Source of the DNA: Escherichia coli
Lineage (GTDB): Bacteria > Pseudomonadota > Gammaproteobacteria > Enterobacterales > Enterobacteriaceae
Length of the DNA stretch: 64,000 nucleotides
Direction: 5' to 3' (one strand)
NCBI RefSeq assembly: GCF_024700885.2
Contig: NZ_CP117016.1
The position numbers and the translations under genes were made by a program. The notes beneath the pieces are model-generated. The model made no database searches. It saw nothing but the letters and a program-made list of their open reading frames with translations, and was not told the DNA's origin. Positions 16,547 through 57,368 of the stretch are shown piece after piece; position 1 is the first letter of the stretch, and each line of letters begins with the position of its first letter.

Positions 16547-17128
<582 letters not shown>

Positions 17129-17248
17129 TTAACAAACAGAGCAGAAAAAAAGCAAGTGAAGAGATTCTAAATAGCCTTCAAGAACAAGGCCATCCCTTTA
17201 CCTAATTTTACGTATCTGAAATATATGTAACCTGACGATCACTTTTTA

Positions 17249-17270
17249 TTCTGTGATCAAAATCACCTCT
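17249..17270. promoter_or_regulatory. CRP-binding-site-like palindrome in the ppiA/tsgA divergent promoter region
   Basis: tctgTGTGAtcaaaaTCACctc is a near-perfect match to TGTGA-N6-TCACA; a second, weaker copy (agatcacaaaatcacc) lies at about 17313-17328. Confidence 0.6.
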
Positions 17271-17389
17271 TAAAATGCAATTTAGCAACCGATTGCAATA
17301 AAACATTTAATCAGATCACAAAATCACCTAAAATCGCCCGCTCGCGGCATAGCCCGCTATGCCATTTTATTTTTGAACGCAGGCCAATC

Positions 17390-18559
17390 ATGACTAACAG
17401 CAATCGCATCAAGCTCACATGGATTAGCTTTCTCTCCTACGCACTGACCGGTGCGTTGGTTATTGTCACCGGGATGGTGATGGGAAATATCGCCGATTAT
17501 TTCAATCTGCCTGTTTCCAGTATGAGTAACACCTTCACCTTCCTCAACGCCGGCATTTTAATCTCTATCTTCCTCAACGCCTGGCTGATGGAAATCGTCC
17601 CGTTGAAAACGCAGTTACGTTTTGGCTTTCTCCTGATGGTGCTGGCGGTTGCCGGTTTGATGTTCAGCCACAGCCTGGCGCTGTTCTCGGCGGCGATGTT
17701 CATTCTCGGGGTGGTCAGCGGCATCACCATGTCGATTGGTACATTCCTGATAACACAAATGTATGAAGGGCGTCAGCGCGGTTCCCGCCTGTTATTTACC
17801 GACTCCTTCTTCAGTATGGCCGGGATGATTTTCCCAATGATCGCCGCGTTTCTACTGGCGCGCAGCATTGAGTGGTACTGGGTTTATGCCTGCATCGGGC
17901 TGGTGTATGTCGCTATTTTTATTCTGACCTTCGGTTGTGAGTTCCCGGCACTGGGCAAACATGCACCAAAAACGGATGCTCCGGTAGTGAAAGAAAAATG
18001 GGGGATCGGCGTGCTGTTTCTCTCTGTTGCGGCGCTGTGCTACATCCTCGGTCAGTTAGGTTTTATCTCCTGGGTGCCGGAGTATGCCAAAGGCCTGGGC
18101 ATGAGCCTGAACGACGCTGGCACGCTGGTGAGTAACTTCTGGATGTCATATATGGTCGGCATGTGGGCGTTCAGCTTTATTCTTCGCTTCTTTGATTTGC
18201 AACGTATCCTGACCGTACTGGCGGGTCTGGCTGCGATTCTGATGTACGTCTTTAACACCGGAACACCGGCACATATGGCGTGGTCAATTCTCGCCCTGGG
18301 CTTCTTCTCCAGCGCGATCTATACCACCATCATCACCCTGGGTTCACAGCAGACCAAAGTACCGTCACCAAAACTGGTTAACTTTGTCCTGACCTGCGGG
18401 ACCATCGGTACTATGTTGACCTTTGTGGTTACCGGCCCGATTGTTGAACATAGCGGTCCGCAGGCGGCACTGCTTACAGCAAACGGTCTGTACGCTGTCG
18501 TCTTTGTGATGTGCTTCCTGTTAGGTTTCGTCAGCCGTCAGCCGTCACCGTCAGCATAA
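17390..18559 (+). CDS. tsgA: MFS-family transporter TsgA
   Basis: ORF track 389-aa translation with about 12 hydrophobic segments ([21 protein letters not shown]...); matches remembered TsgA. The annotated start might differ slightly. Confidence 0.88.
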
Positions 18560-18754: not shown

Positions 18755-18767
18755 TATAAAGGTGAAT

Positions 18768-18781
18768 TTGATTTACATCAA
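18768..18781. promoter_or_regulatory. FNR box of the nirB promoter
   Basis: TTGATttacATCAA, a perfect FNR consensus, about 60 bp upstream of the nirB ATG. Confidence 0.85.
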
Positions 18782-18839
18782 TAAGCGGGGTTGCTGAATC
18801 GTTAAGGTAGGCGGTAATAGAAAAGAAATCGAGGCAAAA

Positions 18840-43206: not shown

Positions 43207-43728
43207 TTAGTTGCTTTCCAGCATGTGAATAATCTGGTTTGCGACCACTTTAGCGCTTTGATCATCAGTACGAATGGTCACGTCGGCAATCTCTTCATAC
43301 AGCGGATTGCGTTCATTGGCCAACGCTTCCAGAACTTCACGCGGCGGTGTTTCAACGTGCAGCAACGGGCGTTTTTTATCACGCTGCGTGCGTGCAAGTT
43401 GCTTTTCGATGGTCGTTTCAAGATAAACGACAACGCCACGTGCGGAAAGACGGTTACGTGTTTCGCGGGATTTCACAGAGCCGCCGCCAGTAGCCAGCAC
43501 AATACCCTGTTTCTCGGTCAACTCATTGATGACCTTTTCTTCGCGATCGCGGAAGCCTTCTTCGCCTTCTAAATCGAAAACCCAGCCCACATCAGCTCCG
43601 GTTCGTTTCTCAATCTCTTGATCGGAATCGTAAAATTCCATATTGAGTTGTTGAGCTAACTGGCGCCCAATAGTGCTTTTTCCGGCACCCATAGGCCCAA
43701 CCAGAAAGATATTGCGTTTCTCTGCCAT
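43207..43728 (-). CDS. aroK: Shikimate kinase I AroK, 173 aa
   Basis: ORF track 43207..43929 is open for 67 codons upstream; the start at [21 protein letters not shown] (P-loop) gives 173 aa. Confidence 0.93.
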
Positions 43729-44128
43729 TTTTTCGGTACTACTAAGACTATTCGTTAATGATAAACCCGCTTCGCTCAGAGAGCGCCGCAGGACATGAAC
43801 TGAAACCTCATAAGATATTGCGAGAGTCAGACTGAAAATTATCTCAATACTCCAGCGGGTTTGGCAACTGAATAAATCACCCATCCCTCTGCATATCTGG
43901 TCGCTGCAAGCGCGCTGCCTTGCTACCACCGCTCTGGCGATAAATCACCGGGTAAGATTAGCGTAAAAAAGACAGCAAAATGCCGCCTGAATGATAAATC
44001 ATCATCATGGAACGCAGGCAGCGAAGAGCACCAACTCTCAAATCGGTACTCCTTGTATGCTAAATACCTGCGCGCGTCAAATAGATGAAACACGTTCAGC
44101 GTAAAAACATTACCGCTTTTACGGCTGT

Positions 44129-45367
44129 TTACTCACTGGAAACCAGTCGTGGCGTGATAAACACCACTAACTCGCGTCGTTCATCTTCTTTTCCGTCATG
44201 ACGAAATAATTGTCCGAACCAGGGAATGTCGCCAAGCAACGGTACGCTATCCTGACCCGATTTATTTTTACGGGTAAAAATGCCACCCAGCGCCAACGTT
44301 TCTCCGCTTTTGACCTCGACCTGCGTTTCGATCTCCTGCTTATCAATCGCCAGCACTTCGCCATCGGCCTGCTGTAGCACCTGCCCCGGAACGTTCTGGC
44401 TGATGTGTAATTTCAGCCGGATGCGACCTTTTTGTAACACCGTGGGCGTAACTTCCATCCCCAGGACGGCCTCTTTAAATTCCACCGACGTCGCGCCACT
44501 TTCCCCGCTGGAAACCTGATATGGAATTTCGCTCCCCTGTTTAATGCTGGCGGGCTGAAGATGTGAGGCCAGCAGACGCGGACTGGCGATAATATCCAGC
44601 TGCTGTTTTTGTTCGAGCGCGGAAAGCTCAAGATCCAGTAAACGTCCGTTGATGCGTCCAATGTTAAAACCGACATGCGTTGTCGCCGTCGCTACGGAGA
44701 GGTCGCTGCCAAGCGTGGTGACTTGCCCAACGCCACCAGCGTGTTGCGCATCAGCCAACGTCCATTTCACGCCTAACTCACGCAAACTTTTTTCATTAAT
44801 GGTGACAATATGCGCCGACAGCTCAACCTGCCCGACCGGCAGATCCATTTGCGCTACCCACTGTTCAAGCGCGCTTAACGCCGTTTTGTTATCTCGCAGC
44901 AAAAGGCGATTAGTGCGTTTATCGACGGTCATACTCCCTTTGGCACTCAGTAGCTTCTCCCCCGCTTTCGCCAGTTCTCCCGCGTCGGCGTATTGCAGGG
45001 TTATACTGCGATTTTCCAGCGGCAGATTTGCCTGCGCCCGCGCCTGCTCCGCCTCCTGACGGGCGATATTGTCATTCTGCCAGGCAACGGAATGCACCGA
45101 GAGAATGTTGCCCTCCTGACGCGTTATCAGTCCGGCGCTTTTCACTACAGTTTGTAGTGCTTGCTTCCAGGGAACATCTGTTAGATGTAACGACACCGTA
45201 CCGCTGACGTCTGGCGACACCACCAGGTTCAACTTCTCCTGTTCAGCCAGCGCCTGCAACACCTGAGCTACCGGAACGTCATCCACCATCAGTGTCACTT
45301 TTTGCGGCTTTGCCGCCTGTACGCCGGGTATCAGCATCAACAGTAGTGCGGCTATCCATTGCTTCAT
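44129..45367 (-). CDS. hofQ: Secretin-family outer-membrane protein HofQ (PilQ/ComE-like), 412 aa
   Basis: Signal peptide plus C-terminal secretin-like region; matches remembered HofQ. Confidence 0.93.
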   Translation of the reverse strand: MKQWIAALLLMLIPGVQAAKPQKVTLMVDDVPVAQVLQALAEQEKLNLVVSPDVSGTVSLHLTDVPWKQALQTVVKSAGLITRQEGNILSVHSVAWQNDNIARQEAEQARAQANLPLENRSITLQYADAGELAKAGEKLLSAKGSMTVDKRTNRLLLRDNKTALSALEQWVAQMDLPVGQVELSAHIVTINEKSLRELGVKWTLADAQHAGGVGQVTTLGSDLSVATATTHVGFNIGRINGRLLDLELSALEQKQQLDIIASPRLLASHLQPASIKQGSEIPYQVSSGESGATSVEFKEAVLGMEVTPTVLQKGRIRLKLHISQNVPGQVLQQADGEVLAIDKQEIETQVEVKSGETLALGGIFTRKNKSGQDSVPLLGDIPWFGQLFRHDGKEDERRELVVFITPRLVSSE

Positions 45368-46636: not shown

Positions 46637-47415
46637 CAGTACACCTTCCCAAGCGCCAGCCCCAGCGCGATGGCAAAGTCTCCACCAGGCGGCGGTAGCG
46701 GCGGCTGACGAACAGAAACGGCCTCCCAGGGGTCAAATCCGCCTTCGCCACATAGCGCGACGCTTTCGGGATCAACGCATAACGCTGCCGCCAGCTCCTT
46801 CGCGCTAGTCATCCCCACCGCCAGTTTGCGCCCCCAGCTATAGCGCGTCGCCCACAGCCACTGTTCGTTATCACGCCAGGCCAGACATTGCTGATGAGAA
46901 GGTAAAAAAGGCAGGAATCGCTGTAATGCACTGGCATCCGGGGTGATCGCGCTAACATGAACACGCAACCTTTCTGCCAGAGTAAGCAGCGTTGCCAGCT
47001 CTTTGCTTTGCGCGGCAGTCACGTTATAGGCGGGACTGAGTGAGTCTTCGCTGTAATCGAAGCGCAGGGAGTCCGGATCCATATCCAGCTCGCGGGCCAT
47101 CGTCCCGGACAGCCAGGCCGTTTGCTCCCGCTCACCAAGGGACATCGACGGGCGTGGAAATGACCGCTGTAATGTGCGACTGGCGGGAAATGCCAACATG
47201 ATGTGATGACGCTGCGGCAGTTCGCGACTCCACGGTAACAACGTGTTAGCCAGCCGCTGCGCATCAACAATCCGCCCATCTTTGATAATGTCGTGCGCCA
47301 GCGGCAACCGCCACCAGCGTTGCAAAAAGCATTCTTTTGCGCCCCGCACGATAGCAACCGCTACCGCTTCTTGCTGTTGTAAATGCAAACCTATTTGCCA
47401 GCTCTTAAATGCCAT
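46636..47415 (-). CDS. hofM: HofM (PilM-like), 259 aa
   Basis: ORF track 46636..47442; the internal ATG (MAFKSWQIGLHLQQ...) gives 259 aa. Confidence 0.85.
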   Translation of the reverse strand: MAFKSWQIGLHLQQQEAVAVAIVRGAKECFLQRWWRLPLAHDIIKDGRIVDAQRLANTLLPWSRELPQRHHIMLAFPASRTLQRSFPRPSMSLGEREQTAWLSGTMARELDMDPDSLRFDYSEDSLSPAYNVTAAQSKELATLLTLAERLRVHVSAITPDASALQRFLPFLPSHQQCLAWRDNEQWLWATRYSWGRKLAVGMTSAKELAAALCVDPESVALCGEGGFDPWEAVSVRQPPLPPPGGDFAIALGLALGKVY

Positions 47416-57105: not shown

Positions 57106-57347
57106 GTTAGTTATCCAGAATCAAAAAGTGGGTTAATTATCGCATCCGGGCCGTAGTATTTTGCTTTTTTCAGAAAATAATCAAAAAAAGTTAGCGTGGT
57201 GAATCGATACTTTACCGATTGAATTTGCATCAATTTCATTCAGGAATGCGATTCCACTCACAATATTCCCGCCATATAAACCAAGATTTAACCTTTTGAG
57301 AACATTTTCCACACCTAAAATGCTATTTCTGCGATAATAGCAACCGT

Positions 57348-57368
57348 TTCGTGACAGGAATCACGGAG
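57348..57368. promoter_or_regulatory. CRP-site-like palindrome in the pckA upstream region
   Basis: ttcGTGAcaggaaTCACggag approximates TGTGA-N6-TCACA about 125 bp upstream of the pckA ATG; pckA is known to be catabolite-controlled. Confidence 0.5.

Follow-up and report, generated by a model that had tools for sequence, protein, structure and literature searches.

The ppiA/tsgA intergenic region of the window (the whole stretch of DNA analysed, 64,000 nucleotides) very probably represents the cAMP-CRP/CytR/cAMP-CRP cassette of ppiA, composed of a strong CRP site at 17252-17267, a weak CRP site at 17305-17320 and a CytR operator located between them. The CRP-CytR region of ppiA was already described in 1994 and, because it has been characterised since that time, the present identification has little significance beyond correct annotation. 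The analysis of this locus assigns the distal CRP site to the register 17305-17320, which gives a 53-bp spacing, and reveals that conservation of a spacing of 52-53 bp, together with that of both half-sites, extends well past the nearest relatives of E. coli. The sequence features, scores, spacing and conservation described below were computed in this study, while binding of CRP at ppiA, activation of the gene by CRP and its repression by CytR are taken from the literature.

Genetic organization of the ppiA/tsgA region

The genes and the three elements of the cassette are located as follows:

16547-17119, minus strand: ppiA, encoding periplasmic peptidyl-prolyl isomerase A, the regulated gene (open reading frame and RefSeq annotation of identical genomes)
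17120-17389: ppiA/tsgA intergenic region, 270 bp
17390-18559, plus strand: tsgA, encoding an MFS transporter, the divergent neighbour (open reading frame and RefSeq annotation)
17252-17267: CRP site 1 (strong, ppiA-proximal), TGTGATCAAAATCACC; centre at 17259.5, 140.5 bp upstream of the ppiA ATG; contains GATC at 17255-17258
17274-17281 and 17292-17299: predicted CytR operator, inverted octamers AATGCAAT and ATTGCAAT separated by a 10-bp spacer; midpoint at 17286.5
17305-17320: predicted CRP site 2 (weak, tsgA-proximal), ATTTAATCAGATCACA; centre at 17312.5; contains GATC at 17314-17317

Several complete E. coli chromosomes carry the 2.2-kb segment surrounding these motifs with 100% identity, and a match to it is present in 5425 of 5426 E. 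coli genomes. Compared with K-12 MG1655, the intergenic region differs at 3 of 270 positions: 17252 (T for C), 17311 (T for A) and 17352 (G for T). The first of these falls in CRP site 1, where the window carries TGTGA and strains K-12, ETEC, ST131 and O145 carry CGTGA; as a result of the T at 17252, the score of the site rises from 14.4 to 16.5 bits. The exact 57-bp haplotype of the window around this position was found in only 238 of 5426 complete E. coli genomes. The TGTGA variant of site 1 is also present in one GTDB “E. coli” representative and in most other genera. The substitution at 17311 is placed in the variable centre of CRP site 2. Apart from T for C at 17252 and T for A at 17311, nothing of substance distinguishes the window from the known ppiA cassette.

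The strong CRP site

The occurrence of CRP sites was examined with a symmetrised 16-bp matrix, built from 106 CRP motifs assigned to ChIP-seq peaks of ETEC H10407 (PMC4287617) with the ppiA entry left out, which was applied to every position of the window (approx. 64,000). CRP site 1 obtained 16.5 bits, i.e. rank 1 among all positions scored, and exceeded the median of the 106 ChIP-seq training sites (13.1 bits). In addition, TGTGATCAAAATCACC is the sole instance of TGTGA-N6-TCACC in the 64-kb window (0.10 expected).

Conservation of the site was analyzed in a comparative scan with PpiA as the query and one genome per species, which yielded 80 loci. A strong CRP site was identified at the same position in approx. 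23 enterobacterial intergenic regions. Where tsgA is the divergent neighbour, the distance of this site from the ppiA ATG is nearly fixed (135-152 bp). Strong sites near ppiA were found in Escherichia, Citrobacter, Enterobacter, Kluyvera, Pluralibacter, Pseudocitrobacter, Erwinia and Pantoea, and in an alignment of 19 species the GTGA and TCA columns of site 1 are invariant or nearly so, with no variation in GTGA and CA.

These results agree with published binding data. The ETEC CRP ChIP-seq peak at ppiA/tsgA is assigned a motif corresponding to the K-12/ETEC allele of site 1, CGTGATCAAAATCACC (PMC4287617); it is given there as GGTGATTTTGATCACG, the K-12 allele read on the reverse strand (PMC4287617). 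Moreover, ppiA was recovered by CRP Genomic SELEX (PMC3105977). A full-text literature search with the site sequences matched only the ETEC ChIP-seq table, and one with RegulonDB names of promoters matched human pseudogenes only. The sequence-only reading of this DNA, which had recognised a near-consensus CRP site here and had pointed to CRP ChIP-seq as a means of checking it, is thus borne out on this point: the motif has the top matrix score in 64 kb, is conserved, and lies under a published ETEC peak that carries site 1 (PMC4287617).

The probable weak CRP site and its spacing

In the intergenic region, the sole other positive CRP match of note is the one at 17305-17320. CRP site 2 obtained 8.3 bits (rank 29 in the window), a value near the 10th percentile of the ChIP-seq bound sites. 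Its two halves are unequal, since TCACA is perfect and ATTTA is a poor, not CRP-like sequence. MEME analysis of the ETEC ChIP-seq peak gave site 1 only (PMC4287617).

This register starts 8 bp to the left of the second motif proposed previously, and the leftward shift makes the centre-to-centre distance 53 bp rather than about 60 bp. The earlier proposal of two CRP sites in the region agrees with the established literature (Norregaard-Madsen et al. 1994, as cited in PMC3454398), with its spacing of about 60 bp replaced by 53 bp. Since 53 bp corresponds to approx. 5.0 helical turns, sites 1 and 2 share the same face of the DNA.

When the best CRP-like partner was sought 40-70 bp from the strong site in 25 intergenic regions, it was found at +53 in 17 and at +52 in 6 of them; one of these two offsets thus applies to 23 of the 25 regions, from Escherichia to Erwinia and Pantoea. 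The counterpart of site 2 reaches just 2-6 bits in most other genera. The TCAC at 17316-17319 is invariant in the 19-species alignment. The conservation of site 2 could be owed in part to a -35 element of tsgA (see below). Scores, spacing and conservation suggest that the distal CRP site revealed by footprinting probably corresponds to the 17305-17320 register.

The predicted CytR operator and comparison with known cassettes

The presence of a CytR operator, overlooked in the sequence-only reading, between the two CRP sites would explain their tandem arrangement. CytR half-operators have been described as TGCAA/TTGCA pentamers or AATGCAAC/GTTGCATT octamers, separated by either <5 nt or approx. 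one helical turn (PMC3454398). The predicted octamers of ppiA, with their 10-bp spacer, agree with both the published sequence and the spacing rule. The pattern TGCAA-N(1-14)-TTGCA occurs only once in the 64-kb window, as AATGCAAT-N10-ATTGCAAT. The TG(C/T)AA motif is partly conserved, and at least 90% of the 19 species retain G at 17277.

CytR cassettes are further expected, from published rules, to have a gap of 10-40 bp between the CRP sites and a CRP operator placed within 5 nt of the CytR operator (PMC3454398). In the window the CRP 16-mers are separated by 37 bp, which is inside the 10-40 bp range, and the CytR operator is 6 nt from site 1 (17267-17274) and 5 nt from site 2 (17299-17305), in agreement with the 5-nt rule. 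The midpoint of the operator (17286.5) nearly coincides with that of the CRP pair (17286).

According to PMC3454398, ppiA belongs to the nine E. coli genes for which CytR control has been proven by experiment, and it has a characterised OCRP-OCYTR-OCRP cassette. The same text, citing Norregaard-Madsen et al. (1994, Mol Microbiol 14:989), attributes four promoters to ppiA, three of which are CRP-activated and CytR-repressed (PMC3454398); which of these four promoters each site would serve is here inferred from scores, spacing and conservation. The cassette described by Norregaard-Madsen et al. (1994), as represented by this citation, comes from the same locus of the same species, and in it two CRP sites flank a CytR operator. 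Regulation in the CytR regulon proceeds by anti-activation: CRP alone activates transcription, and CytR, which binds cooperatively between CRP dimers, blocks this activation (PMC3454398); cytidine releases CytR (PMC3454398). By this scheme, at high cAMP levels CRP bound at the cassette would activate transcription of ppiA. CytR free of cytidine would bind its weak operator and contact both flanking CRP dimers, and the resulting CRP-CytR-CRP complex would mask the activating surface of CRP, an effect that nucleosides would relieve.

As at ppiA, other promoters of the CytR regulon (deoP2, deoC, udp, nupG, cdd, tsx, rpoH) contain tandem CRP sites spaced by approx. 53 bp on one face of the DNA. 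In deoP2 the CRP sites are centred at -40.5 and -93.5. These promoters carry a weak inverted TGCAA/TTGCA operator between the CRP sites, within 5 nt of one of them, and are subject to anti-activation (PMC3454398). The ppiA gene differs from the other genes of the regulon in that (i) it is not involved in nucleoside catabolism, (ii) it has four promoters, (iii) it is preceded by a CpxR box, and (iv) its CytR octamers are separated by 10 bp and lie midway between the CRP sites. In a comparative study, a convincing CytR cassette was seen only in the nearest relatives of E. coli (PMC3454398).

An in silico GalR site at K-12 position 3492468 (PMC5110547), which falls at approx. position 17290 of the window if NC_000913.3 numbering applies, is placed on the CytR operator. 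It is a weak prediction, most simply ascribed to the similarity of LacI-family operators.

The direct repeat

The second motif of the sequence-only reading overlaps CRP site 2 in a different register:

17313-17328, plus strand: previously proposed second CRP motif, agatcacaaaatcacc; its first half overlaps CRP site 2

As had been claimed, both strings are present at their positions in the 270-bp region between the divergent ppiA and tsgA genes, and GATCACAAAATCACC occurs at 17314-17328 (0.03 expected in the window). An 11-nt exact direct repeat, CAAAATCACCT, is the longest of the intergenic region; the repeat finder extended it to 24-nt copies that are 75% identical and spaced by 61 bp, and also returned the inverted pair ATTCTGTGATC / GATCACAAAAT. 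When the intergenic region was shuffled 2000 times with its dinucleotides preserved, an exact repeat of at least 11 nt arose in only 1.7% of the shuffles. The direct repeat is real and modestly beyond chance.

Such a repeat might be taken as two equivalent, directly repeated and phased CRP sites (17252-17267 and 17313-17328, approx. 61 bp apart) that jointly control ppiA and tsgA. The rarity of the repeat in the shuffled sequences speaks for such an arrangement, as do the binding of CRP in vivo to this intergenic region (PMC4287617) and the listing of the gene opposite ppiA as a predicted target by the authors of the SELEX study (PMC3105977). It is nevertheless highly improbable. As a CRP site, the 17313-17328 register obtained -1.0 bits (rank 1114 in the 64-kb window), and -4.4 bits for the ST131 allele; the +61 offset scored negative in all species examined (25 intergenic regions), every species other than E. 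coli included. A distance of 61 bp corresponds to approx. 5.8 helical turns, so the motifs in this register are not on the same face of the DNA, and the arrangement leaves out the CytR operator. The half-site that is conserved is TCACA at 17316-17320 and not TCACC at 17324-17328, hence the second motif does not hold up as a duplicate of the CRP site.

The direct repeat with site 1 arises from the tail AAAATCACC (17320-17328), which is not conserved: within E. coli its TCACC varies, ST131-type strains having TCGCC, and other genera lack it and show ACGCC, GCGCC or ATGAA instead. The tail is an Escherichia-specific coincidence. The repeat is a by-product and not a functional unit, since both CRP sites share a GATCA half-site core and, in Escherichia, a chance match to AAAATCACC follows the second one.

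A related arrangement has been described for cddP, whose CRP-2 and CRP-3 sites overlap and where CytR could reposition CRP between the overlapping registers (Holst et al. 1992). At ppiA, the registers starting at 17305 and 17313 are 8 bp apart. Unlike in cddP, the second register has a below-zero score and is not conserved; an alternative functional register of this kind is therefore unsupported and was rejected.

A candidate tsgA promoter overlapping CRP site 2

The conserved block on the tsgA side of the cassette extends beyond CRP site 2 and includes promoter-like sequences:

17306-17334, plus strand: candidate core promoter of tsgA, with -35 TTTAAT (17306-17311), a 17-bp spacer and -10 TAAAAT (17329-17334); overlaps CRP site 2

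The TAAAAT hexamer is invariant in the 19-species alignment and in 19 of 25 intergenic regions is located at +69.5 from the centre of site 1. The TTTAA(A/T) sequence at 17306-17311 (TTTAAA in K-12) is nearly invariant, though it is not CRP-like. A sigma-70 consensus scan of positions 17050-17450 with the window allele found no promoter, and the proposal of a tsgA promoter is consequently based on conservation only. On that basis, tsgA may plausibly be transcribed from a sigma-70 promoter of the form TTTAA(A/T)-17-TAAAAT. CRP binding does not account for TTTAA, and a promoter does not account for the TCAC within the spacer, which makes two overlapping signals likely. With the tsgA transcription start predicted at approx. 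17341, site 2 would be centred at about -28.5, an occluding position, and site 1 at about -81.5, which could be a class I position.

A tentative alternative to the role of this segment in the ppiA cassette, although a rather unlikely one, is that the conserved block 17305-17334 is mainly the tsgA core promoter, and that CRP at site 2, alone or locked by CytR, chiefly represses tsgA, while site 1 could activate it. It would account for the invariance of TAAAAT and its fixed distance from site 1, as well as for the near invariance of TTTAA despite its mismatch to the CRP consensus; the invariant TCAC in the would-be spacer, left unexplained by a promoter alone, would fit CRP binding there. Against this stands the empty sigma-70 scan of the window allele. 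Furthermore, a tsgA promoter of this kind would add to the known ppiA cassette and not replace it. If it is functional, one cassette would exert opposite or conditional control over ppiA and tsgA.

More doubtful still is the combined proposal that a CRP-CytR-CRP complex both anti-activates ppiA and occludes the tsgA promoter, with CRP at site 1 able to activate tsgA. Were it true, the region would form a two-way switch through which cAMP and nucleoside signals act on both a periplasmic foldase and an MFS transporter. In the literature searched, neither a transcription start, nor expression data, nor CRP or CytR regulation was found for tsgA, the SMRT-Cappable-seq supplements gave no match, and in the supplement of Latif 2018 ppiA appears in the cluster table only.

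A terminator-like hairpin, GGCATAG-CCCG-CTATGCC (17346-17363, plus strand), followed by the T-run ATTTTATTTTT extending to 17373, is situated between the candidate tsgA -10 element and the tsgA ATG. The stem is retained in other genera with different bases (e.g. GGCGCA/TGCGCC, AACGCA/TGCGTT), and the T-run is specific to Escherichia. With a hand-specified structure, 5 of 6 pairs are changed on both sides and 75% of cells pair, versus 65% in shuffles; RNAalifold applied to the MAFFT alignment did not recover the hairpin, so covariation is seen only with the structure specified by hand. No Rfam match was obtained for 17000-17500. The hairpin could act as a stabiliser of the 5′ leader or as an attenuator.

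Dam, CpxR and FNR signals

Three GATC sequences are located within 80 bp of each other (17237-17240, 17255-17258 and 17314-17317), and the latter two are placed inside the CRP sites. The GATC outside the CRP sites and a CpxR box are listed here:

17237-17240: third GATC (Dam site), lost in ST131-type strains (GATAAC)
17197-17211, minus strand: CpxR box GTAAA-N5-GTAAA, 78-92 bp upstream of the ppiA ATG

In strain 998 the second GATC (17255-17258) is replaced by GACC. The classic cases of GATC sequences reported to stay stably unmethylated include Dam sites preceding ppiA (Hale et al. 1994, summarised in PMC12369378), and protein occupancy upstream of this gene is altered in a dam mutant (PMC12369378). 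The GATC sequences within both CRP sites would fit protection from Dam by bound CRP.

It might be argued instead that the GATCA(C)AAAATCACC unit is bound by a different factor, or is subject to Dam-dependent epigenetic control, without involvement of CRP. Each copy of the repeat contains a GATC; the stable lack of methylation upstream of ppiA and the altered occupancy in the dam mutant, which is of the non-RNAP type (PMC12369378), are in line with such control, and a K-12 FNR ChIP-seq peak falls in the same intergenic region (PMC3688515). Protection of a GATC within an occupied CRP site nevertheless suffices for undermethylation, the tail of the repeat is not conserved, and the change in the ppiA transcript in the dam mutant is minimal (log2 -0.22; PMC12369378). 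These observations make a CRP-independent role of the repeat unit very unlikely, and the CRP/CytR cassette continues to be the preferred explanation of the region.

Both TTTAC pentamers of the CpxR box are invariant in the 19 species, and GTAAA-N5-GTAAA was found twice in the window (0.06 expected). For Yersinia ppiA, the same motif was mapped approx. 80 nt upstream by CpxR~P footprinting and mutagenesis (PMC3158067); the position of the E. coli box matches this footprinted site. The other instance of the motif in the window (44118-44132, minus strand) coincides with the 3′ end of an ORF of 412 aa (44129-45367) and precedes the next minus-strand ORF (43207-43929). The latter may be aroK, which is a reported member of the Cpx regulon.

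The K-12 FNR ChIP-seq peak upstream of ppiA (NC_000913.2, approx. 3,490,500) was reported without an FNR-dependent change in expression and with “distinct FNR and CRP sites” (PMC3688515). Read as GTGAT-N4-ATCAC, site 1 departs from the FNR consensus TTGAT-N4-ATCAA by a single base in each half-site.

Other CRP/FNR-type matches in the window

Further high-scoring CRP/FNR-type matches to the matrix were identified at 18767-18782, at 57247-57262 and 57350-57365, and at 46942-46957. One gene start is needed to place them:

18840: start of nirB

The sequence TTTGATTTACATCAAT matches the FNR consensus and precedes nirB by approx. 60 bp. Read on the opposite strand, TGCGATTCCACTCACA equals the yhgE/pck ChIP-seq site, whose ETEC version is part of the matrix training set, and GGTGATCGCGCTAACA differs by a single base from the hofM ChIP-seq site, whose ETEC version is likewise included in the training set.
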